DNA from: Vulcanimicrobiota bacterium
GTDB taxonomy: Bacteria; Vulcanimicrobiota; Xenobia; Xenobiales; JADMJV01
Assembly: GCA_050250895.1 (NCBI GenBank)
Contig: JBFWNU010000007.1
Location: forward strand, 1 to 64,000
Length of the DNA: 64,000 nucleotides
Direction of reading: 5' to 3'
Shown: piece by piece, positions 15,552 to 52,095 of the stretch
How positions within the stretch are numbered: the first letter of the stretch is position 1
How the letters are laid out: every line of letters begins with the position of its first letter
Translations under genes and position numbers: made by a program
The notes under the pieces: generated by a model
What the model saw: only the letters and a program-made list of their open reading frames with translations
Databases searched by the model: none
Told to the model about the DNA's origin: nothing

Positions 15552-16772
15552 TTAGGGAGTCAGCAATTCGCTGACGCCCTGATAGGCAAAAAACAGCAGG
15601 GTTCCCACCAGCACGAGGTTGGTGAGCCAGTTGTTGCGGAACTCGCCCACCCAGTCGCGGCGATTGTTCATCAGCAACAGGGTGACCGCCAACAGCGGCA
15701 TGAACATCGCACCCAACACGGCATAGGCTACCTGAATCTGTTTGAGGCTAAAGCTCTGCAGGCCCAGCGGAAGCAAAGCCAACCCCAGCAGGTAATAGCG
15801 GTAGGTTGGCGTGCGAGTCAGGTCGTCGGCACTGATCTTGAGCCCGCGACTGCGGGAGAAATAGTCGGCCGCCAGATAAGGCACGCCCTGCCAGACACCT
15901 AGCAGACTCGAAAACACAGCCGCCCAAAAGCCCACCAGAAACAGATAACGTCCAGGTTCTCCCAGCAAGCCGGCCAGCAAATCGGCCAGGACCACGGCCA
16001 CCTGGGCTCCCTTGCCGTCGAGGGTCACCCGCGATCCGATGACGACCATGGCCATTCCGAAGACTGCCGTCATGGCGTAGCCTACCGACAGGTCGAGGCG
16101 ACAAGCTTTTAGCCCGTCGACCCCTTCGCGCTCTTCTTCGTCGATCCAGTAGCCGTAAGAGAGCAGCGTTACCGTGCCCCCGACCCCGCCCAAAACTCCC
16201 AGAGTCAGGCCCAACCCGCCTTCCGGGACGCGGGGCCAACCCAACCCCGCCACCAGGCTGGACAGGTCGGCCCCCAGCCACAGGGCGGTCGAAACGACCG
16301 TGCAAAACATGGCCCCGATGCAAACGCTCATCAGCTTCTCGAAGGTCTTGAAGCCGCCCGCCAAGACCATGGCCAGTCCAACCAGCGAATGGATGACCCC
16401 CCACCAGAAGACCGGAACGGCCGGCACCAGGGCGGCCCCAGCGACTCCGCAGGCCTTGATCAGTGCTCCACCCACGAACAGAGTCCAGAGGAGCAGGTAA
16501 GGCACGAACAAGATCTGGATCCAGTTGCCCAGGCGGTCGAGCCAACCAGTGAGCAAAGTCGTCCCGGTGGCCATCTGCCAGCGCGCGATTCCCTCATTGA
16601 GAAACCATTTCAACAAGGCTCCCACCCAGGCCGCCCAGAGGATGCTCAGGCCCAACTTCGAGCCGGCCAGGGTTGCGTTGACCAGATCGCCAGCACCCAC
16701 GCCGGTGGCGGCCACCAGGATGCCCGGACCCAGACGGGCCATCCAGCCCCGGCTCTCTCGCTCGGCTTGCAT
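15552..16772 (-). CDS. NRAMP-family-like divalent cation transporter
   Basis: LGPGILVAATGVGAGDL N-terminal motif; about 11 TM segments. Confidence 0.8.
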   Translation of the reverse strand: MQAERESRGWMARLGPGILVAATGVGAGDLVNATLAGSKLGLSILWAAWVGALLKWFLNEGIARWQMATGTTLLTGWLDRLGNWIQILFVPYLLLWTLFVGGALIKACGVAGAALVPAVPVFWWGVIHSLVGLAMVLAGGFKTFEKLMSVCIGAMFCTVVSTALWLGADLSSLVAGLGWPRVPEGGLGLTLGVLGGVGGTVTLLSYGYWIDEEEREGVDGLKACRLDLSVGYAMTAVFGMAMVVIGSRVTLDGKGAQVAVVLADLLAGLLGEPGRYLFLVGFWAAVFSSLLGVWQGVPYLAADYFSRSRGLKISADDLTRTPTYRYYLLGLALLPLGLQSFSLKQIQVAYAVLGAMFMPLLAVTLLLMNNRRDWVGEFRNNWLTNLVLVGTLLFFAYQGVSELLTP

Positions 16773-16850
16773 GGTGCCGACTTGGTCGCCGCCGGCTCGG
16801 TTCCTCTCGGGCAGGAGCCTCTGCTTGGCCGAGGAACCCAGCCAGCGCCC

Positions 16851-19013
16851 ATGCAGTTGACCGTGAACGCCAAAGAGGACTTTTTTGGTGGCTTGACGGC
16901 CGCCGTGACCGCTCTGCCCCTGGCCATTGCCTTCGGTGTGCTAGCCCTGTCCCCGCTGGGTCCCGAGTATGCCTCGGTGGGAGCCCTGGCCGGACTCTAT
17001 GGGGCCATCTTTACCGGAATTTTCGCGGCTTTGTTTGGGGGGACAGCCTGTCAGGTCAGCGGTCCCACCGGGCCCATGACCACCGTTCTAACCACTTTCG
17101 TGGCCAGTCTGGTCGCCCTCGAGATCGAGGTCGAACTGTTGTTGGTGCTGACCTTCATGATGGTGACCATGGGCGGATGCGTTCAGTTGCTCTTTGGGGC
17201 CCTCAAGGTGGGCGGTCTGATCAAGTTCATCCCGTATCCCGTCATCGCCGGCTTTATGAACGGTATCGCCGTCATCATCTTTCTGGGGCAGGTCCGCCCC
17301 TTTCTGGGTCTTCCCAGCTTGACCGCCTGGACCGACGTGTTGCGCTTGCAGGGCTTGCAACCCTGGACTTTGCTGGTCGGCCTGGTCACGGTGGTGGCGG
17401 TGGTGGTCACCCCCAGGCTGACCAAGAAGGTGCCGGGCTCTCTCAGCGGTCTGGCCCTGGGCACTGTCTGCTACTATCTTTTGTCGGGCCGCGAGTTGGG
17501 ACCGGTGATTGGCGAGATTCCCACCGGCATCCCCACCCCCCATCGGTTGCTGGATTTTGCTGCTCTGGTGGGTAGCGGCGAGGTGGTGGCCTGGCTGCCG
17601 ACCCTGGTGCCGGCCGCTTTCGCTCTGGGCGTGCTGGGATCCATCGATAGCCTGCTGACATCGGTGGTGGCCGACACCGTCACCCGCACCCGCCACGACA
17701 GCAACCGCGAGCTTTTCGGACAGGGGATCGGCAACATCATCTCTGGCTGCTTTGGCGGGTTGGCCGGGGCCGGGGCCACGGTGCGCACCCTGGTCAACGT
17801 AGCCGCCGGTGGCCGGGGCCGCCTGTCGGGCATGGTCCACGGTCTGGTGCTGTTGGCGGTGCTCCTGGCCTTCGGGGGCCTGGCCGGTAAGATTCCCAAG
17901 GTGGTGCTGGCCGGTATCCTGTTGGTGACCGCCGTGGGCATGGTCGACCGCTGGAGTAGCCGCCTGATTTGGAAGCTGACCGGTACTGCCGAGCAGAAGC
18001 GCGAGATCGCCATCAATCTGGCGGTGGTGGTCGTGGTCACGGTGGTGACGGTGGCCGTCGACCTGATGGTGGCTGTGGCCATCGGCATCGTGATCGCCAG
18101 TTTTCTGTTTGTCGAGAAGATGAGCAAGGATGTGGTGCATCGTAGCTTTCGAGCCGACGTCATGCATAGCCGCCGGGTGTTGCCGCCCCACACCATGCAA
18201 GTGTTGAGTGAGCAAGGCAACAACACGCTGGTTTTCGAGTTGCAGGGTCCGCTTTTCTTCGGCACCGCCGACCGCCTGGCCACGGCCTTGACCGACACCG
18301 TCAACGACTCGATAGAGCGGGTGATCCTCGACTTTCGCCGGGTGCGCGAGATCGACGCGTCGGGAGCCAGAGTCCTGATTCTGATTCAGGAGTTGTTGTC
18401 GGATCAGGGTAAAAGGCTGGCCCTGGCGTCGCTGGACGAAGCCCGCAATGAATGGGGCTTTCTAGTCGACATGCGGGTGGTGGAGACGGTTGGCCGCGAG
18501 TTCATTTTCGGGGATCTCGACCAAGCGCTGGAATGGGCCGAGAACCTCATCCTCGACCAAACCGAAGTCGATGACCACGACTATGGGCCCCACCGGCTCG
18601 AGCAGCTAGAGATCCTGGCCCGATTTCAACCCGACGAGATCGAGACTCTCAAAGGCTATCTAGTGGCCGAGGAGTTCACTCAGGGGCAGACGGTGATCGA
18701 GAGGGGACACCAGGGGGATAGCCTCTATATCCTTACCGAGGGCTCGCTGAGCGTGCATCGAGAGCAGCGGCGCGTCGCCACCTATGGGCCTGGTTCCCTG
18801 GTGGGCGAGATGGCTGTCCTGGAAGGACTCGAGCGAGGGGCTGACGTCAAGGCCGACCGCCCGGCCCGGGCCTATCGGCTGGACCGGGCCCGCCTCGAAG
18901 AACTGACCGCCACGCATCCAGGTATAGCCGCCAAGTTTTTGTGGAATATCGGGGCTGAGCTTTCGGCGCGCTTGCGCTGGACAGCCCGAGAAATCGAGTG
19001 CCTGGAGGCCTGA
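16851..19013 (+). CDS. SulP anion transporter with STAS and cyclic-nucleotide-binding domains
   Basis: ALPLAIAFG, SGPTGPM, NRELFGQGIGN, LQGPLFFGTA (STAS), VGEMAVL (cNMP). Confidence 0.92.
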   Translation: MQLTVNAKEDFFGGLTAAVTALPLAIAFGVLALSPLGPEYASVGALAGLYGAIFTGIFAALFGGTACQVSGPTGPMTTVLTTFVASLVALEIEVELLLVLTFMMVTMGGCVQLLFGALKVGGLIKFIPYPVIAGFMNGIAVIIFLGQVRPFLGLPSLTAWTDVLRLQGLQPWTLLVGLVTVVAVVVTPRLTKKVPGSLSGLALGTVCYYLLSGRELGPVIGEIPTGIPTPHRLLDFAALVGSGEVVAWLPTLVPAAFALGVLGSIDSLLTSVVADTVTRTRHDSNRELFGQGIGNIISGCFGGLAGAGATVRTLVNVAAGGRGRLSGMVHGLVLLAVLLAFGGLAGKIPKVVLAGILLVTAVGMVDRWSSRLIWKLTGTAEQKREIAINLAVVVVVTVVTVAVDLMVAVAIGIVIASFLFVEKMSKDVVHRSFRADVMHSRRVLPPHTMQVLSEQGNNTLVFELQGPLFFGTADRLATALTDTVNDSIERVILDFRRVREIDASGARVLILIQELLSDQGKRLALASLDEARNEWGFLVDMRVVETVGREFIFGDLDQALEWAENLILDQTEVDDHDYGPHRLEQLEILARFQPDEIETLKGYLVAEEFTQGQTVIERGHQGDSLYILTEGSLSVHREQRRVATYGPGSLVGEMAVLEGLERGADVKADRPARAYRLDRARLEELTATHPGIAAKFLWNIGAELSARLRWTAREIECLEA

Positions 19014-19330
19014 TGAGTATCAAAGAAGTCGATCCCAAGACCGCCCAGCAGATGCTGGCGTCCGACCCCCAACTGCAGTTGCTGGATGTGCGCGAGCCCT
19101 GGGAATACGAGCAAGCCCATATCCCGGGAGCGCGCTTGATTCCGCTGGGCGAGGTGCCGAGCCGCTATAGCGAACTCGACGCTGCGCGTCCGGTGCTGTG
19201 CGTCTGTGCTGGCGGCGTGCGTTCGATGAAAGCGGCCGAGTTTCTGGCCGGTCACGGATTCACGGTGACCAATCTAGGCGGGGGCACCAAAGGTTGGATG
19301 AGTGACCAGCTTCCGGTAGAGTCAGCTTAG
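19013..19330 (+). CDS. Rhodanese-like protein
   Basis: LLDVREPWEY, HIPGA, CAGGVRS, NLGGG. Confidence 0.9.
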   Translation: MSIKEVDPKTAQQMLASDPQLQLLDVREPWEYEQAHIPGARLIPLGEVPSRYSELDAARPVLCVCAGGVRSMKAAEFLAGHGFTVTNLGGGTKGWMSDQLPVESA

Positions 19331-20530
19331 CCCGGTCATCTGCAAGAAGGGCAAGCCCATCACGATGATGATCAGGGCTACCGCCAGACCGACCACCACC
19401 ATGATGATCGGCTGGATGGTCGAAGCGAAGCCCTCGAGGGCGTTGTACACCTTGAGTTCGTAGACATCGGCCACCTTATGCAGCATGCGGTCGATGTCGC
19501 CGGATTCTTCGCCGGCCGCGATCATTCCGATGGCCAGGCGAGTAAAGTGGGGAGAGTCGCGCAGGCAGGTGCTGAGCTGTTCGCCGCTTTTCACCCGCCC
19601 GGTGATACTGAGGATCTCGTTACCCACTACCCGGTTGCCGACCGTGTCCGAGGCCAATTCCAGAGAGTCGAGCACGGCGATGCCGCTGGCGTAAAGGGTG
19701 GCCAGGGTGCGGCTGAAGCGAGCTGTGTACAGCAGTCGATACAGTTCGCTCACCACCGGCAGGCGAAGGCGGATACTGTCGAGCACCGTCTGGCCTTTTT
19801 CACCGCTAAAGAACCGGGCTACGAAGTAGAGCAGAGCGATGACCAGCGGGATCAGGATGTAGATATTCGAGCCGAGCAGGCCTCCCACCACCACCACCAG
19901 GTTAGTGGCCCAGTGGATCTGCAAGCCGAGGCCGCCGTAGATCTCTTGCAAGAAGGGTACCGAGATGCCCATCAATCCGGTAATCAAAAAGAACGAAAAG
20001 ATGATTAACAGGGTGGGGTAGGTGAGGGCAGCTTTGACCTTCTCTTTGATTCCTTCGGTTTTCTCGGTGTAATCGGCCAGGCGTCGCAGCATCTCGGGCA
20101 GATTGCCCGAGCGTTCGCCGGCCTTGACCATGCTGCGATAGAAATCGTCGAAGACCTCAGGATGCTTGGTCAGCGCCTGGGATAGGGTCTGGCCCCCAGC
20201 GATGTCGTTGGAGAGGTCCGAGACGACGCGCCGCAGGGCCGGATGCTCGATGTCTTCATAGAGGATGTCCATCACTCGCTTCATCGAGATGCCGCCCTCG
20301 AGCATCGAGGCCAGGGCTTGCGAAAACCCAAGCAGGTCGTCACCTTTGACGGGAGTGATCCAATTGAGGAAACGCTGGATGTTGTCGGGGCTGACCACTT
20401 CGTCGAGTTGGACTACGTTGGCGTATTGCTGTTTTAGCATCGCCTCGGCTTGCTGGCGGTCGGGAGCCTCGAGGCGTCCTCGGTGTCGATTGTCGTCGGC
20501 GTCGCGCGCGCTATAGACGAACTCGGGCAA
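19322..20530 (-). CDS. pilC: Type II secretion/type IV pilus platform protein (PilC/GspF)
   Basis: MVKAGERSGNL, KAALTYP, AGEESG. Confidence 0.88.
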   Translation of the reverse strand: MPEFVYSARDADDNRHRGRLEAPDRQQAEAMLKQQYANVVQLDEVVSPDNIQRFLNWITPVKGDDLLGFSQALASMLEGGISMKRVMDILYEDIEHPALRRVVSDLSNDIAGGQTLSQALTKHPEVFDDFYRSMVKAGERSGNLPEMLRRLADYTEKTEGIKEKVKAALTYPTLLIIFSFFLITGLMGISVPFLQEIYGGLGLQIHWATNLVVVVGGLLGSNIYILIPLVIALLYFVARFFSGEKGQTVLDSIRLRLPVVSELYRLLYTARFSRTLATLYASGIAVLDSLELASDTVGNRVVGNEILSITGRVKSGEQLSTCLRDSPHFTRLAIGMIAAGEESGDIDRMLHKVADVYELKVYNALEGFASTIQPIIMVVVGLAVALIIIVMGLPFLQMTGLS

Positions 20531-20600
20531 TGGATCTAAGCCTTTCCTGAAGGTGTTTCAATACCTTCGGGCTCGGTAGAAATTCTCCCGTCCTGGTTGG

Positions 20601-21812
20601 TTAGAAGGATGAGGCCAGCTGATAGATGGGAAGAAAGGCGGCCAGCAAGATGAAAGCCACTACGCTGCCGAGCATCATCAGTACCACCGGTTCGACGAGT
20701 TTGCTGATGGTGTCCAGTCCGCGGGTCATCTCGTCGTCGAAGAACGCTGCCATGCGCCACATCATCTGGCCTACCTGGCCGGTCTCTTCGCCGACATGGA
20801 TCATCTCCAGGCACATTTGTGGAAAGACTTTGTAGGTGTTCATGGCCACCGTCAATCGTTTGCCTTTGCGGACGGCCTCGAACTGAGCCACGGCCGTGCG
20901 GGCCAGGATCTCCCGGTCGAGGCTTCGTGACAGGAGATGCAGGGAAGTGTGCAGGGTGACTCCAGACTCCGCCAGGGTCCCGAAAGAACGGAAGTACTGG
21001 GCCAGCATGCGGTTTTTGATCTGAACACCGTACCACGGGATCTTCAGCATCCACTTTTCTATGCGGAAACGTCCCTCTTTGGTTCGGGCCCAGTTGAGAA
21101 AGAGCCAGGAGAGGGCCGAGACCGGCCCAACCAGGGTGCAAAATAGCACCATGCCGTAGGTCTCGAAGAACTCGGCCGTGTTGACCAGCCAGCGGGTGGC
21201 CCAGGGCAACTCCATGGAGAGGTCTAGAAACAGGCCGACGAACTTCGGAATCATGAAAGTGAAGATGAAGGTCACCAGGGCTCCGGCCGAACTCAGCAAG
21301 ACGGTGGGATAGATCAGAGCCGATTTCAGCTTGTTGGCGTAGGTATACTCCTTCTCGAAATGAGTGGCGCAATTGTCGAGGGTTTCGGCCAGGTTGCCAC
21401 TGGCTTCGCCGATGCGGGTCGAGCCGATGATGAAGGGCGAGAAAAACTCGGGAGCCTTGAGCATGGCCTGTGACAAACAATAGCCCACGGTGATATCGTG
21501 ATAGAGCCGCTCCATCGCCTTCTTGAACCGGATGGGACCTTCTTGCGGTTGCAGCGACTTGAGCGCGCCCGAAAGGGGGATGCCAGCTTTGAGCATCACC
21601 GCCAACTGCCGGATGAAGAGGGCTAGCACTGTGCCTTTCACGGGTTGTAACAGTAACCAGATCCAATGCTTCGGTTGCACCGGCTCGAGCTGTAAAATGG
21701 TCAGATTGCGACGCTGGAGCCTCTCGATGGCCTTCTTCTGATCGCGGGTCTCGATCTCGCCCGAGACGCGTTCTCCCGTTTCGGTGATGGCCACATAGAT
21801 AAACTCGGGCAT
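20601..21812 (-). CDS. pilC: Second PilC/GspF platform protein
   Basis: FIRQLAVMLKAGIPL, GEASGNL, KSALIYP, VGEETG. Confidence 0.88.
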   Translation of the reverse strand: MPEFIYVAITETGERVSGEIETRDQKKAIERLQRRNLTILQLEPVQPKHWIWLLLQPVKGTVLALFIRQLAVMLKAGIPLSGALKSLQPQEGPIRFKKAMERLYHDITVGYCLSQAMLKAPEFFSPFIIGSTRIGEASGNLAETLDNCATHFEKEYTYANKLKSALIYPTVLLSSAGALVTFIFTFMIPKFVGLFLDLSMELPWATRWLVNTAEFFETYGMVLFCTLVGPVSALSWLFLNWARTKEGRFRIEKWMLKIPWYGVQIKNRMLAQYFRSFGTLAESGVTLHTSLHLLSRSLDREILARTAVAQFEAVRKGKRLTVAMNTYKVFPQMCLEMIHVGEETGQVGQMMWRMAAFFDDEMTRGLDTISKLVEPVVLMMLGSVVAFILLAAFLPIYQLASSF

Positions 21813-22328
21813 CTAAAAGCGCTCCAGCACGACGCGGCGAGTCAGGCTATGGGGTTGGGGATCCTCGGGCGGCTTGGCCTGATAGATCACGTCGAGATAG
21901 TCGGGCCGGGACTTGTCGCTGCCGCTGGGCACCTCGAATTTGAGACTCTCCCAGCTTTCGAGGCGCGCCAGCACCTGCAATTCACCAGCGCTGAACAACA
22001 GCACCTTTCCGTCCTGGACGGCGATGGTCGAGGCGGCCGGGTCGAGTTGCAGGGTGCGCCCTTTGCCGATCGTTTGCTCCGAGACCGAACTGAAGACGAT
22101 GGCATCGTTGTTGTAGGTCACAGCGTGCAAGACCGATGAGTTTACGTAGGTTTCGACCTTATTGAGTAAAGTGACGCCACGTCGGTACTGGTCCGAGTCC
22201 TGGTCACGCTTGTGGCTGACCTGGACGCCGTAGAGATAGAATCCCAGCACCAGCGTCATCAGAATGGCAAAGACCATCAGGACCACCAGCAACTCGGCCA
22301 GCGTGGTTCCGCGGGCCGGTTTCACCAC
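21813..22328 (-). CDS. Prepilin-type minor pilin
   Basis: RG|TTLAELLVVL class III signal peptide with E5. Confidence 0.8.
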   Translation of the reverse strand: MVKPARGTTLAELLVVLMVFAILMTLVLGFYLYGVQVSHKRDQDSDQYRRGVTLLNKVETYVNSSVLHAVTYNNDAIVFSSVSEQTIGKGRTLQLDPAASTIAVQDGKVLLFSAGELQVLARLESWESLKFEVPSGSDKSRPDYLDVIYQAKPPEDPQPHSLTRRVVLERF

Positions 22329-22657
22329 CCGAACTTGTCCCGCAACTCGTAGGTCTCGACCCGGTAACTTTGTTTGCCGTTCTTGTCTTCCCAGTCGGCG
22401 CGAGCGATGACTCGCACCAGTTCGGGCACCTCGGGGTGCTTGAGGCCGACTCCTTCACGTCTGGCCTTGGCGAGCTGGGCGGCGACCGATTGGCCGACCT
22501 CCTCGCGATGCACCTGCCGCTGCTCGAGTTTCTGGCCGCTGTGCATGAGTCTGATATGTAAGCTCATGTAACCGAAGAAGGCGATGCTGATGAAGAGGAT
22601 CGCAATCATCACTTCGGCGAGAGTGAAGGCGCGCCGCGGCTTTGGCATGCTGATCAT
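22322..22657 (-). CDS. Prepilin-type minor pilin (PilV-like)
   Basis: RRA|FTLAEVMIAIL class III signal peptide. Confidence 0.8.
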   Translation of the reverse strand: MISMPKPRRAFTLAEVMIAILFISIAFFGYMSLHIRLMHSGQKLEQRQVHREEVGQSVAAQLAKARREGVGLKHPEVPELVRVIARADWEDKNGKQSYRVETYELRDKFGW

Positions 22658-22675
22658 TTCTGGCTTTCGACCGGG

Positions 22676-24193
22676 TCAGCCTGCCGGCACGACCACGATT
22701 TTGGATACTTTGACATCCTCATCGAGTTCGAGTTCCAGGCCCGGGGTTAAGACGACTTCTCCTTTGAGGTAGCTCTCCTTTATGTAGTTGTCGAAATCCC
22801 GGCGCAACCGGATGGAGTCGAGCGAGGTTCCGACACAAAGGCCCTTGTCGGTGCTGTAGAAGCTGTAGGTGGTTTCGATGGCCACCACTCGATCGCCCAC
22901 CAGGCTGAAGGTCAAGAAGTTGGCCGGGTAGGCCAGGCGGCGCAAGCCACTCGAGAGGGTGCGCGCGTCGGGCGGGCCGAGTTCGTTTTCCAGCTGCTTT
23001 TCGGACATTCCCAGCGTGAAGTTGCCCAGGCTCTTGCCCGGCACGACCTTGGCGTTGGAGCGACTGGGTCGGGTGCGATCCATGAGCATCGGCACGGCCT
23101 CGGCCAGCATCTCGGAGGTGCGGGTCGAGACCGGGTCTTCGTTGGAACCCGAATCCGGGTTGGCCCGGCGTAGCATGCGATAGATGCCGGCACTGTTGGC
23201 AGCCAGGCTATAGCAGTGGCCGGGAAAGCCACCCATGCGGCCCAATACGATGCCCACGAGCTCTCCACGCTCGTTGAGCAGAGGGCTGCCAGCGTCTCCG
23301 TCGCGAGTGACCCCCCGAAAGTGAAAGAAGCCTGGGCCGGCTGGCCCCATGGCCTGGGCCGACAAGGCATGGTAAGAGTTGGAATCGTTGGCGTCATGAT
23401 AGGCCAGGCGCTCTCCGCGGTTGGGGGCCTCGGGAGCTAGTGGGACCGCTCTATAGGAGCCGGGAGGTAGCTGGATCAAGGCCAGATCCAGAGTCGGGTC
23501 GCGACTGACCAGGGTGGCCGTGCCTAGACTACCGTTGACCCAGGTGCGACTGAGGTGGCTTGGCCCCAGTCGAGAGGAGCGGGTGATGGCCAGACCGGAC
23601 TCGTCCACTACCACTCCCGAAATATAGTTGCCTTCCAGGTCGGCCATGCGCACCAGGCCAGGGTTGGCCAGGCTCCACTGATTGTCGAGGGAACTCAGGG
23701 AAGGGCGCTTCTGCACATCGGGAAAGACCAGGGCCGAGCCGAGGTCTACGGCGGGTTTGGGGCTGTTGTGCGCCGTTTCTCGGGGCCGCCGTGGTTGTTC
23801 GGTCGTGCGCCTGGGACTGGCCGAAGGGGACGGAGAGGGCGTGGGTCTGGAGGGCTTGGTCTCAGGAGCGGCCGTGGCTTCAGGGAGCGGACTGACCGGC
23901 ATCGGCTGGCTGGGCAGGCGGCGCTCCTCTTTGGGTTTGCGGTGGTAGGCCAGGTAGGTGTAGTTAGGCGGCGCCGTGCGGCCATTGCTCTGGGATTGGC
24001 GCGCCTGGCGAACCCGCTCGCGGTATCCCTCGGCGGTACGTCGGTCGACGCGTTTGAGTTCCTGCTCCCTGGCTGGGCCCAGGAAGAGATTATAGGACAG
24101 GAGGAATCCGGCCAGAGCCGTGACCAGCGATACCGTTCCGGCGAAGACAAGGTGTTCTTTTCGGGGGAACTCTTCGTCGACGGGGATGTGCAC
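22676..24193 (-). CDS. Membrane-anchored trypsin-like (S1C) domain protein, degenerate catalytic triad
   Basis: N-terminal TM, Pro-rich linker, DLALI, GDAGSPLLNERGELVGI. Confidence 0.75.
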   Translation of the reverse strand: MHIPVDEEFPRKEHLVFAGTVSLVTALAGFLLSYNLFLGPAREQELKRVDRRTAEGYRERVRQARQSQSNGRTAPPNYTYLAYHRKPKEERRLPSQPMPVSPLPEATAAPETKPSRPTPSPSPSASPRRTTEQPRRPRETAHNSPKPAVDLGSALVFPDVQKRPSLSSLDNQWSLANPGLVRMADLEGNYISGVVVDESGLAITRSSRLGPSHLSRTWVNGSLGTATLVSRDPTLDLALIQLPPGSYRAVPLAPEAPNRGERLAYHDANDSNSYHALSAQAMGPAGPGFFHFRGVTRDGDAGSPLLNERGELVGIVLGRMGGFPGHCYSLAANSAGIYRMLRRANPDSGSNEDPVSTRTSEMLAEAVPMLMDRTRPSRSNAKVVPGKSLGNFTLGMSEKQLENELGPPDARTLSSGLRRLAYPANFLTFSLVGDRVVAIETTYSFYSTDKGLCVGTSLDSIRLRRDFDNYIKESYLKGEVVLTPGLELELDEDVKVSKIVVVPAG

Positions 24194-24622
24194 CAGAGTA
24201 TTGTAACTGAAGGATAGGAGCGGATCAATTCTGGACGCACCCGTGGCGATGTTCTGGGTCGACCCCTCTTTTCGAGCCTCAGGTTGCCTGGAGGTGAATA
24301 TGATTCACTCATTGTTCGACTCGGTGGGACCCGATGGAGGCAATAATCCTGGGGAGAAAGCGAACAGCGGCCTCAAGTTTTGCCACCGCTCGGCAAAAAA
24401 AAGTTTCGGCCGAATTGGTGGGAAAAAATTCCAGTTTGACCGCGGAATTTCATGGCCCCAGCCTGCCCCTCTGGAACCCGGTAACCTTGTCGGGCTCCGA
24501 CGTGGTAGATGTTCTCGGAAGGGCCGGGCCGGGGATGGTCGATAAAACGGTCGGTTGAGGGTGAGAATCGCTCAAGAATCCGTTGGTTATGGGAAGAATA
24601 ACTTTCAACTTTATCTTCCTCT

Positions 24623-24636
24623 CGAACACCTGTTGG
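24623..24636. promoter_or_regulatory. Putative Gram-positive-type LexA (SOS) box
   Basis: CGAAC-ACCT-GTTGG versus consensus CGAAC-N4-GTTCG; abuts the -35 of the promoter upstream of uvrA. Confidence 0.4.
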
Positions 24637-24637
24637 C

Positions 24638-24667
24638 TTGTATGCCCAGCGGCGCCGGTGCTATATT
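24638..24667 (+). promoter_or_regulatory. Sigma70-type promoter for the large structured RNA
   Basis: TTGTAT-N18-TATATT with extended -10 (TGc); predicted TSS about 24672-24674 coincides with the 5' closing-stem strand. Confidence 0.7.
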
Positions 24668-24672
24668 AACCA

Positions 24673-25640
24673 GGCAAGACCTCGAGCGAACGGAGGAACC
24701 AGTTACCCAACGCTAGACTGAAAGCTTCATAGTATCACGGTCATTAGACCGTTTGAGCATCGCGCACCTTCCTTCGGGAAGGAACGCAGCCCTTCGGGGC
24801 ACGCGGCTGGACTTCGGTCCAGTGCTCCTACCGCCAACCTCCGGGTTGGACGCTCACGGCGATACGTTCTACCCTGGCCTCTCCTGAGAGGCGCCTTTCC
24901 AGGCAGGGCTTCGGCCCTGGGGTAACCCGGCCTGCCAGGAGGCCGCGCCCACCACGGTGAGCGGATTTGCTTGCAAATAGGTTGGAACTGCCGGGGAGTG
25001 GGAAGTCATCGGACTTGTTCCGGTCTCCCCGCAACTCTTTGACTCCGGGATTCGTCCCGGCGAGACGCAGGCCTCGGCCCGCGATGTTTCACCACCGGGT
25101 CGCTTCGGTGACCCAGCCGCAGTCTTCTTCGGAAGACAGTCTTCTTCGGAAGACACGTCCTCTTCGGAGGACACGTCCTCTTCGGAGGACAGCTTTCTTC
25201 GGAAAGCAGCTCGTCGCTCAGACTCCGGTCTGCAGCGAGTTCAGGTTCGCCCTGAGCACCGAGTCTCCTAAGGGTCTTCGGACCCTCACCGCAAGATTCG
25301 CTCTAGCGGCGGGGGACGTCCACCCAGTGGCGGTTGAGCAGTTTGTTCCTCGGGACAGACAACCGTCTCGCTCCGGCGAGACACGCGGCACGGACTGTTC
25401 GCAGTCCAACGTCGACTTCGGTCGACACGACGCCTCGGCGTCAGACGAAGCTCGCTTCGTCAGGTGAAGCAGCTCTCGAACGCTCTCTTCGGAGGGTGCA
25501 AAGAGCGCTCAAGTCGGCTCGCCGACGTGCTAGAGCACCGAATCCTAGGCTCGGCGCGGACTTCTTCGGAAACCCGCAATCAGTCACCGCATAGGCCGCT
25601 TCGGCGGCTGGGTTAGGGCAAGTTCAAACGGGGTCTTGCC
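24673..25640 (+). ncRNA. Large (~970 nt) highly structured non-coding RNA of unknown family
   Basis: About 30 hairpins, mostly with UUCG/UCCG/CUCG loops; G-U pairs fix the + strand; 5' GGCAAGACCUCG pairs with 3' CGGGGUCUUGCC; bounded by a promoter and a U-tract. Confidence 0.8.
25122..25207 (+). repeat. Five tandem 16-nt UUCG hairpins
   Basis: GTCTTC-TTCG-GAAGAC x2, GTCCTC-TTCG-GAGGAC x2, GCTTTC-TTCG-GAAAGC; 1-2 nt linkers. Confidence 0.9.
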
Positions 25641-25652
25641 CTTTTTCTTTTT
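25615..25652 (+). terminator. Intrinsic terminator at the end of the large RNA
   Basis: AGGGCAAG-N12-CTTGCCCT followed by TTTTCTTTTT. Confidence 0.65.
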
Positions 25653-25655
25653 CCG

Positions 25656-28485
<2,830 letters not shown>

Positions 28486-28502
<17 letters not shown>

Positions 28503-51800: not shown

Positions 51801-51876
51801 GCCCTTGTAGCTCAATTGGCAGAGCATCCGCCTTGTAAGCGGAAGGTTGCCGGTTCGAGTCCGGCCCGGGGCTCCA
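51801..51876 (+). tRNA. tRNA-Thr(UGU)
   Basis: Cloverleaf; anticodon arm TCCGC-CTTGTAA-GCGGA; TTCGAGT loop; CCA end. Confidence 0.93.
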
Positions 51877-51899
51877 TTATTCCGCTCGCTCGTCGGGGC

Positions 51900-51928
51900 T
51901 TGACGATCGGTGACGGGCAAGCTATAAT
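51900..51928 (+). promoter_or_regulatory. Sigma70 promoter for tRNA-Gln/Glu
   Basis: TTGACG-N17-TATAAT. Confidence 0.85.
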
Positions 51929-51940
51929 CAACCACGAATT

Positions 51941-52014
51941 TGCCGGGTCGTCTAGTGGTAGGACAGCGGACTCTGGATCCGTATGCGAGGGTTCGAATCC
52001 TTCCCCGGCAGCCA
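51941..52014 (+). tRNA. tRNA-Gln(CUG)
   Basis: Anticodon arm GCGGA-CTCTGGA-TCCGT; U1-A72 first pair; CCA end. Confidence 0.95.
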
Positions 52015-52018
52015 TTAT

Positions 52019-52095
52019 GCCGCGTTGGTCTAGAGGCTTAGGACGCCGCCCTCTCACGGCGGAAATCACGGGTTCGAATCCCGTACGCGGTACCA
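52019..52095 (+). tRNA. tRNA-Glu(CUC)
   Basis: Anticodon arm CCGCC-CTCTCAC-GGCGG; CCA end. Confidence 0.95.

Follow-up and report, generated by a model that had tools for sequence, protein, structure and literature searches.

An end-paired structured RNA before uvrA and its relatives in one order of Xenobia-type Eremiobacterota

Introduction

What fills the space in front of the DNA-repair gene uvrA in a Vulcanimicrobiota bacterium, and does it govern that gene? The stretch analyzed here, called the window throughout, comprises 64,000 nt of contig JBFWNU010000007.1 from a 9.5-Mb, 99.6%-complete host genome of a phylum with a single cultivated species; the locus in question lies at 24673-25652 on the + strand. 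The original prediction held that a transcript of this locus can pair its two ends with each other, that this end helix competes with a terminator directly before uvrA, and that the RNA either refolds after termination into a closed, 6S/Ms1-like molecule or uses the end pairing as an antiterminator controlling read-through into uvrA. In our opinion, the locus probably specifies a stable, stand-alone structured RNA, which would terminate at the local hairpin, refold into the closed form, and leak into uvrA. The evidence consists of two exclusive folds, the covariation of the end helix in homologues, and RNA contigs of matching extent.

One RNA gene with two mutually exclusive folds

Positions 24673-25652 are a non-coding RNA gene and not a coding region. 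None of the four open reading frames (ORFs) inside it has a Pfam family, and the sequence is single-copy in its own genome. The 1.4-kb "empty" space before uvrA is a gene, which is a caution for annotation. The elements on which the argument turns are the following.

24673-25652, + strand: non-coding RNA gene, about 970-980 nt (lack of an Rfam match, fold z-score, CUUCGG asymmetry, RNA-library contig)
24673-24684, + strand: 5' strand of the end-to-end helix P1 (sequence, fold, homologues, alignment)
25629-25640, + strand: 3' strand of P1, shared with the terminator hairpin (sequence, fold, homologues, alignment)
24688-24691, + strand: 5' strand GAAC of helix P1b, whose partner is GUUC at 25622-25625 (sequence, relatives)
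25615-25652, + strand: intrinsic terminator, consisting of the hairpin AGGGCAAG / CUUGCCCU (25615-25642) and a U-tract (25642-25652) (terminator scan, local fold)
25120-25204, + strand: tandem UUCG-capped hairpins, 4.9 copies of an 18-nt unit (repeat search, fold)
25656-28502, + strand: uvrA, which begins 4 nt past the U-tract and has no Shine-Dalgarno sequence (Pfam, NCBIfam NF001503)

The pairings described in the original prediction are all present in the sequence. Thus, GGCAAGACCTCG at 24673-24684 pairs with CGGGGTCTTGCC at 25629-25640 over 12 base pairs with one G-U (U24682-G25631), and past a 3x3 internal loop (AGC opposite AAA) GAAC (24688-24691) pairs with GTTC (25622-25625). In the alternative fold, AGGGCAAG (25615-25622) pairs with CTTGCCCT (25635-25642), followed by TTTTTCTTTTT up to 25652. 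The end helix and the terminator hairpin are mutually exclusive by sequence and by folding, as the 3' strand is common to both. A terminator scan flags 25630-25642 plus TTTTTCTTTTT, and the full hairpin (25615-25642) has a local folding energy of -13.9 kcal/mol; a G+C-rich hairpin thus stands directly before a U-tract, the arrangement of an intrinsic terminator.

The minimum free energy (MFE) of the + strand is -484.6 kcal/mol, compared with -399.2 +/- 7.7 kcal/mol for 20 shuffles (z = -11.2), and the end helix is present in the MFE fold. Enforcing the end helix leaves the energy at -484.6 kcal/mol, whereas enforcing the terminator hairpin raises it to -475.6 kcal/mol; in the ensemble, pair probabilities are 0.71-1.0 for the end helix and about 0 for the terminator pairs. 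The fold is strand-specific: the complementary strand reaches a z of only -6.8, and CUUCGG occurs 15 times on the + strand, whereas its complement does not occur. Among the 33 hairpin loops of the MFE fold, 22 are UNCG and 15 of these are UUCG. Given these UNCG hairpins, including the tandem array, the interior looks like a scaffold that grows by very stable hairpins.

Distribution and size of the RNA family

Homologues were sought by BLAST, DNA patterns and a covariance model in 40 genomes of the same order and in 361 genomes from the rest of the phylum (Eremiobacterota/Vulcanimicrobiota). Genera of the order are referred to as g1 to g9, the window belonging to g1, and its families as f1 to f3. 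The RNA is present in 16 of the 40 genomes of the order (g1 2/2, g2 6/6, g4 4/5, g8 3/4, g9 1/1). No copy was detected in g3 (0/8), g5 (0/10), g6 (0/2) or g7 (0/2), where divergence beyond the reach of the patterns may explain the result for g3 and the small-genome genera. None of the 361 other genomes of the phylum, which were searched by the 5'-motif pattern only, contains it. The same 5'-motif patterns find 14 loci in a species-representative genome collection and 10 in a metagenome collection; all 14 of the former lie in metagenome-assembled genomes that are titled Vulcanimicrobiota, Eremiobacterota or Candidatus Xenobia, or were mislabelled by the submitter. A search with the promoter element described below adds divergent copies in the third family of the order (f3). 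The RNA family appears confined, among the genomes searched, to one order of Xenobia-type Eremiobacterota.

Family members range in length from 283 to about 1180 nt, and in their interior from about 230 to 1100 nt, resembling one another only in the ends and in a few motifs. The lengths are as follows.

L066, the shortest RNA: 283 nt
RNAs of genus g2: 303-335 nt
RNA of genome G039: about 490 nt
RNA of genome G001, the congener of the window: 730 nt
g4 copy A: 746-752 nt
RNAs of g8: 918-974 nt
Window RNA: 980 nt
g4 copy B, the second paralogue: 983-984 nt
Metagenome contigs L063 and L064, the longest members: about 1180 nt

In BLAST comparisons with the 40 relatives, only the first ~100 and the last ~40 bases of the query match, at very different spacings, and even the window and its congener G001 can be aligned only over the first ~125 nt and the last 55 nt. 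A covariance model built from nine short forms (R1) recovers all six g2 genomes and, partially, G000, the genome of the window (E 2.8e-4), and no other long form. Because R1 misses the long forms, it is unfit to map the range of the family, and patterns were used instead.

Genus g4 carries two paralogues. Copy A (L053, L060, L061, L062, L068), of ~750 nt, lies directly before radA. Copy B (L054, L057, L067, L069), of ~985 nt, stands alone; in its end helix a C-G pair is replaced by U-A, and a second hairpin follows its U-tract.

Conservation of the two conformers

Covariation in homologues, a check proposed along with the original prediction, is present in the end helix. In 24 complete RNAs, which represent 17 distinct end pairs, positions 1-10 of P1 are paired in every case. 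In a 23-row alignment (A3), 99.2% of 244 cells are paired; both partners change in three of the 11 pairs (C-G to U-A in g4 copy B, U-A/U-G/C-G, and G-C to U-A), one partner only in two, and neither in six. None of 500 shuffles reaches the paired fraction or the covariation score, and slid partners are only 27-48% paired. P1b takes the form GAAC/GUUC, GGAC/GUUC or GAAU/GUUC across the relatives.

The local hairpin is conserved in another manner. Its 5' arm varies across lineages, and its 3' arm is always taken from the P1 3' strand. In g1, g2 and g4 copy A it folds at -14 to -16 kcal/mol, and in g4 copy B at -7.5 kcal/mol, as compared with -20 to -30 kcal/mol for the P1 duplex in the relatives. 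Both conformers are thus conserved, but differently: P1 by sequence and covariation everywhere, and the local hairpin by reuse of the P1 3' strand.

Promoter and conserved loops

Outside the two conformers, the conserved anatomy comprises these features.

24623-24640, + strand: conserved promoter-upstream element CGAACACCTGTTGGCTTG (CGAAC-N4-GTTGGCTTG), overlapping the likely -35 (exact pattern in relatives)
24638-24667, + strand: putative sigma-70-type promoter, TTGTAT at 24638-24643, an 18-nt spacer and TATATT at 24662-24667 (sequence, aligned upstream regions)
24692-24704, + strand: purine-rich, Shine-Dalgarno-like loop strand GGAGGAACCAGUU, opposite UAGGGCAA (25614-25621) in the closed form (alignment, inspection)
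24705-24709, + strand: 5' strand ACCCA of the putative helix P2, with UGGGU at 25609-25613 as its likely partner (read by eye; not in the MFE fold)
24935-24942, + strand: CCAGGAGG motif in a hairpin loop, followed by CCCACCACGG; its short-form counterpart is CCAGGAAG plus CCCACGACGAG (sequence, short-form alignment)
25544-25549, + strand: palindromic CCUAGG hairpin loop on the stem CCGA/UCGG (sequence, homologue check)

The upstream element has 21 exact sites in 16 of the 40 genomes of the order, compared with none for a reversed-pattern control, and 19 of the 21 were seen by inspection to lie 45-50 nt before an RNA homologue; the window's own genome has two copies in all. Upstream of every copy of the RNA the order of elements is the same: CGAAC-N4-GTTGGCTTG, an overlapping TTGYRY, a 17-18-nt spacer, and then TAnnnT, which lies ~7 nt ahead of the first G in GCAAGACC. 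In the aligned upstream regions, the hexamers of homologues read TTGCAT or TTGTGT and TAACCT, TAGTCT or TATATT. On these grounds, we infer a promoter at 24638-24667. A simple scan of the + strand over 24000-26000 returned no sigma-70-like site, and hence none between the RNA and uvrA; it missed the putative promoter because the -35 matches the consensus at only 3/6 positions.

A highly conserved loop of the RNA is placed by inspection between P1b and P2. It contains the invariant GGAGGAACC; GGAGG is invariant in 23/23 aligned RNAs, the 5' loop strand GGAGGRACC(AG) is nearly invariant, and the 3' strand is purine-rich (AAGGGCAA, UAGGGCAA or CAGGAAGA). Elsewhere in the same genome, at C1:357532 on the opposite strand, GGAGGAACC occurs in a real ribosome-binding context (GGAGGAACCTCATG), and the RNA loop therefore resembles a strong Shine-Dalgarno region of the organism.

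P2 was read by eye as a second covarying helix, which would differ in sequence by lineage and retain complementarity. Its equivalents would be ACCCG/CGGGU in G001, CCUAC/GUAGG in g2, CACCC/GGGUG in g4 copy A, AACCCG/CGGGUU in g4 copy B, and GCCGCC/GGUGGC or ACCACC/GGUGGU in g8. Of the 57 pairs that RNAalifold predicts for the nine short forms, 16 show compensatory changes; GUAA, CCAGGAAG and UCCUAGGCC recur as conserved loops, and the helix that closes the CCAGGAAG loop covaries. CCTAGG is found at the equivalent place in G000, L063, L064, 9/9 short forms and g4 copy B. As a family-wide feature, the CCUAGG loop was rejected, being absent from g4 copy A (5 RNAs), G001 and 4 RNAs of f3; TCCGGA matches where CCTAGG is missing are mostly plain UNCG hairpins.

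Transcript evidence

Parts of 24400-26400 are held by 20 public runs, eight of which are recorded as metatranscriptomes; Logan contigs were compared for three RNA runs from three studies and for one DNA run, and the RNA contigs of all three studies cover the body of the RNA. A single 948-nt RNA-library contig of run X7 corresponds to 24685-25632, and in run X19 a contig stops at 25633 and then passes into Illumina adapter sequence. The DNA run yields one even contig from 24600 to 25853. That RNA contigs of two studies stop at 25632/25633, where DNA continues, is a weak hint of a discrete 3' end. In run X5, 72 of 140 records match the window at 99% identity or more; the body contigs listed (~60-370 nt) have word depths of ~15,600-25,000, and a 360-nt contig of depth 2,206 spans 25544-25900 from the RNA into uvrA. 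The RNA is plentiful in these libraries, and read-through molecules exist. Missing cover of the RNA runs before ~24668, and beyond ~25940 in X5, was not counted as evidence.

Two metagenome contigs, L063 (Ga0058902_1246198) and L064 (Ga0222746_10042659), are 1171 and 1172 nt long and contain the RNA only. They are 80% identical and therefore come from two organisms; both start at the homologous GCAAGACC/CAAGACC and stop within the P1 3' strand. Breaks at both RNA ends in two cases would be surprising for genomic contigs; the pair look like assembled transcripts.

Proposed termination and refolding

The course of events that we favor would begin with transcription from about 24673/24674, driven by the conserved promoter with its CGAAC-N4-GTTGG element. 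About 950 nt of hairpins would fold during synthesis, with the 5' strand of P1 held transiently by inner partners; folds of the growing transcript indeed show this strand partly paired with changing inner partners until the 3' end emerges. At the 3' end, the local hairpin AGGGCAAG/CUUGCCCU would form first, because its arms are only 12 nt apart, and together with the U-tract would terminate most transcripts. The released RNA would then rearrange: the 5' end displaces AGGGCAAG, and P1 and P1b form, a state computed to be ~9 kcal/mol more stable. Both ends would now be clamped, and AGGGCAA would be freed to face the invariant GGAGGAACC strand in the loop between P1b and P2, where a protein or RNA partner would most probably act. 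The interior would be a fast-evolving scaffold enlarged by UNCG-capped hairpins. A minority of polymerases would read through, accounting for at least part of uvrA transcription.

The closed, end-paired RNA that was one of the two outcomes originally proposed fits with a helix that has compensatory changes in every complete homologue, with the energy difference between the conformers, and with RNA contigs of that extent. The additional label "6S/Ms1-like" is an analogy of shape only, there being no 6S match and the core being multi-branched, while the refolding itself fits the evidence.

The same geometry could be read differently, with P1 itself, closing a loop of 300-1100 nt, releasing the polymerase and the local hairpin being incidental or a back-up. 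A single nucleotide separates the end of P1 (C25640) from the start of the U-tract (25642); no other element is as conserved as P1, and by the energies given above P1 is much stronger than the local hairpin, which is particularly weak in g4 copy B. Yarnell and Roberts are said to have found in 1999 that oligonucleotides pairing with the region of the 3' arm can provoke release at a U-tract in vitro. However, all lineages of f1 and f2 retain a local hairpin on the same 3' strand despite its differing 5' arm, which argues for selection on the local hairpin, and the nascent folds show the 5' strand partly paired inside when the 3' end emerges. Furthermore, f3 retains P1 without a good U-tract, so P1 is kept there for some reason other than termination. 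A long-range terminator is, in our view, doubtful.

Genes behind the RNA and the question of control

The gene behind the window RNA is uvrA by a Pfam match and by NCBIfam NF001503 (1468 bits). Its ATG at 25656 lacks a Shine-Dalgarno sequence, as originally described; the accompanying statement that only pyrimidines stand in its place is nearly correct, C/T plus one G being found between the U-tract and the ATG. In the congener G001, the ATG follows directly after the U-tract. Since the terminator leaves no space for a promoter behind it, and the scan detected no promoter-like site, the leak probably feeds uvrA, and the locus may fairly be described, in architecture, as a 1-kb leader whose terminator is constitutive and leaky.

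Other lineages have other genes at this place. radA follows g4 copy A and the RNA of G039 (TIGR00416, E 1e-101 and 1e-113, partial sequences), and a radA-like gene follows that of G035; in six g2 genomes there is an alpha/beta-hydrolase gene with a signal-like N-terminus, in two g8 genomes another ORF, and behind g4 copy B the second hairpin only, with no adjacent gene. The tally is uvrA in 2 genomes and radA at 7 distinct loci. The radA gene of the window genome is on another contig, without the RNA. Because uvrA, radA, a hydrolase gene or no gene may follow it, the RNA family is not tied to uvrA.

These observations bear on the proposal that a signal (DNA damage, a protein or a small RNA) chooses between terminator and end helix, thereby setting read-through into a repair gene. 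Such a regulated attenuator would account for the mutual exclusivity of the two helices, for uvrA lying 4 nt past the U-tract with neither a promoter-like site nor a Shine-Dalgarno sequence, for the contig that bridges the RNA-uvrA junction, and for the repair genes behind the RNA in g1 (uvrA) and in g4, G039 and G035 (radA). The read-through into uvrA originally envisaged does occur, as the contig at 25544-25900 attests. An antiterminator would be expected to sequester the 5' arm of the terminator, whereas P1 uses the 3' arm and ends at 25640, so that a helix next to the U-tract is not prevented. P1, stopping 1 nt before the U-tract, is itself a terminator-like stem, which makes an antiterminator role unlikely. 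The neighbors, too, count rather against such control, uvrA being downstream in one genus only, the g2 and g8 genomes and g4 copy B having a hydrolase gene, another ORF or no gene, and the genome's own radA lying elsewhere without the RNA. The antiterminator half of the original prediction is therefore poorly supported, and we regard a regulated attenuator as unlikely.

A link to DNA damage could also be sought in the promoter, since CGAAC-N4-GTTGG resembles GAAC-N4-GTTC, the LexA box of Gram-positive bacteria, a likeness that would favor the attenuator as well. Control by SOS/LexA was nevertheless rejected. No GAAC-N4-GTTC-type box lies within 330 nt before recA or three of the four LexA_DNA_bind genes, and the fourth lexA-like gene has only a match with two mismatches. 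Genome-wide, 12 perfect boxes and 8 intergenic boxes with one mismatch reveal no SOS-like regulon, and the few near-perfect intergenic ones precede unrelated genes, for example fusA-like and def/histone-like genes. One of the sites found, at C1:2439638-2439655, is a perfect 18-nt palindrome, TTCGAACGTCTGTTCGAA, flanked by a peptide-deformylase-like gene and by a Lys/Ala-rich histone-like ORF of 109 aa; no other perfect CGAAC-N4-GTTCG site is clearly intergenic, and this one is a likely operator of a putative regulator.

A further reading would make the RNA a riboregulator or scaffold linked to DNA damage, of a hitherto undescribed kind, combining the LexA-like promoter element, the fusion to uvrA or radA in 4/5 genera, capture by GGAGGAACC and self-pairing of CCUAGG. 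If so, GGAGGAACC, exposed only after the switch to the closed form, would act as a trap for a CU-rich small RNA or for the 30S subunit, and the palindromic CCUAGG loop would let molecules pair, as in recently solved RNA-only assemblies; the genus does have such a CU-rich small RNA, which carries an 11-nt complement and shares the rare promoter element. We rate this possibility as slight, on a par with the attenuator.

Several points weigh against a stand-alone RNA that terminates, refolds and leaks. In most lineages, a same-strand gene begins 14-80 nt behind the RNA, and in four of the five genera a DNA-repair gene lies behind it in at least one genome; a close same-strand gene, often a repair gene, leaves room for a role in cis. 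The order of termination before refolding was derived from energies and arm distances, for which a kinetic account would be the simplest. Intrinsic termination may be limited to part of the family, since in f3 a weak local hairpin is combined with a tail behind P1 (GCGCCAUUUCUC) that makes a poor U-tract. Measured against the E. coli consensus, the promoter hexamers are weak, and the consensus scan did not pick them up. The call of the + strand relies on the orientation of promoter and terminator and on the UUCG asymmetry, the contigs being strandless and inexact at their ends. Finally, contig word depth is a poor measure of level, and neither an abundance nor a leak figure was drawn from it.

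Candidate small-RNA partners

The second copy of CGAAC-N4-GTTGGCTTG in the genome lies outside the window, at C1: about 1077287-1077470 (L046:985-1181). It drives a small RNA of ~145 nt with a strong terminator and no Rfam match, which carries CUGGUUCCUCC, an 11-nt complement of the invariant loop GGAGGAACCAG of the large RNA. The CUGGUUCCUCC complement and the terminator are kept in the congener G001, that is, in the two g1 genomes only. A conserved small-RNA partner was rejected on this account: BLAST and pattern searches found no counterpart in the other 38 relatives, and order-wide matches were at control level. The motif GGTTCCTCC occurs 60 times in the genome, four of them outside long ORFs. 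At C1:855445-855530, where there is no long ORF, AGAACCTATGTTCG is followed by GGTTCCTCC and by a terminator-like hairpin (GCCACCGAA...TTCGGTGGC TTATTT); this sequence may be a further small RNA that shares the CU-rich motif.

The surrounding window

Upstream of the RNA, the neighbor is a trypsin-like peptidase gene on the opposite strand (22676-24193). Between this divergent gene and the RNA promoter, ~430 nt (24194-24620) contain no convincing gene; they include a promoter-like site for the peptidase on the minus strand (24228-24200) and an A8 run at 24397-24404. Three consecutive tRNA genes lie at 51801-52092 of the window, on the + strand.

Tests against known RNAs

The three tRNAs are all that Rfam returns for the whole window at gathering thresholds, with nothing at the locus. 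At E<=1, Rfam 15 matched 23500-26500 only with WT1-AS_2 on the minus strand (E 0.4), which is chance level, and a short homologue searched at E<=5 gave nothing meaningful (best E 0.41). Thus, the models of OLE, GOLLD, ROOL, raiA and HEARO, as well as all others of Rfam 15, match neither the locus nor the short homologue. RNase P RNA, tmRNA and signal recognition particle RNA were rejected as identities, each being found above its cut-off elsewhere in the genome and none in the window. Y RNA was likewise rejected: PF05731 (TROVE/Ro) has 0 matches in the 99.6%-complete genome, and a control found TROVE in Deinococcus.

The case of 6S RNA deserves separate consideration, because a closed RNA of the 6S/Ms1 type would bind RNA polymerase, as holoenzyme or core, by mimicking a promoter or nucleic acid, and buffer transcription in slow growth. 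An end-paired and apparently plentiful RNA with a large conserved internal loop between helices, co-transcribed with the gene behind it in the manner of ssrS-ygfA of E. coli, would suit such a role, the more so as the genome's own 6S candidate scores below threshold. That candidate (C1:76298-76466, minus strand) is, however, full-length, lies in an intergenic gap elsewhere in the genome, and is the only one found (30.7 bits against a cut-off of 46.4). No 6S covariance model matches the locus (E<=1) or the short homologue (E<=5), and in place of a rod with one central bubble the nine short forms have a multi-branched core, in which P2 encloses at least 5 hairpins. Together with the four-fold variation in length, this makes a polymerase mimic improbable, more so than the alternatives discussed above.

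Comparison with known systems

The nearest analogues in shape and gene order are E. coli 6S RNA (ssrS), which is co-transcribed with ygfA, and mycobacterial Ms1, stable regulatory RNAs with an end-paired closing stem and a conserved internal loop. The window RNA shares with them the long closing stem of 5' and 3' ends, the conserved internal loop and the downstream gene on the same transcript. Unlike them, it has no Rfam 6S match, has a multi-branched core, spans 283-1180 nt in its family as against about 185 or 300 nt, and owes its 3' end to an intrinsic terminator whose 3' arm is reused in the closing stem.

Y RNAs, which act with Ro60/Rsr, also have paired ends and a variable interior, and are linked to UV and DNA-damage genes in Deinococcus. 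The likeness to the window RNA extends to the conserved stem of paired ends and the variable interior; the genome, however, has no TROVE/Ro protein, and the window RNA is much larger.

Attenuators and riboswitch platforms resemble the locus in that two exclusive helices share a strand at a U-tract, before a gene without a promoter of its own. They differ in that the alternative helix here takes the 3' arm and pairs it with a 5' end ~950 nt away, and in that no sensor domain is tied to one gene, there being four kinds of neighbor.

In one published account (PMC12286853), OLE, GOLLD, ROOL and raiA are large "ornate" bacterial non-coding RNAs of unknown function. Like them, the window RNA is large, structured and lineage-restricted, has covarying helices and conserved motifs in its loops, and is not known to have a biochemical role. 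Unlike them, it is not matched by their models, conserves only a terminal domain and a few loops while its interior turns over within a genus, and has neither a phage or tRNA neighborhood nor partner genes alongside. The accessible portions of the literature yielded no account of non-coding RNAs from Eremiobacterota/Xenobia.

New large structured bacterial RNAs are rare, and the known classes (RNase P, tmRNA, 6S, OLE, the GOLLD/ROOL cages) opened new biology. The present family offers a natural length series of one RNA, from 283 to ~1180 nt, that is convenient for structure work, a clear example of an intrinsic terminator whose 3' arm, after release, would serve again to clamp the ends of an RNA, and a testable link between the strong promoter of the RNA and the expression of the repair genes uvrA and radA. 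Since the locus departs from the nearest systems in the features by which membership can be tested, and since the literature matches were unrelated, we regard it as representing an undescribed RNA family within the large structured bacterial non-coding RNAs, unusual in its reuse of a terminator arm for end clamping and in its four-fold range of length.

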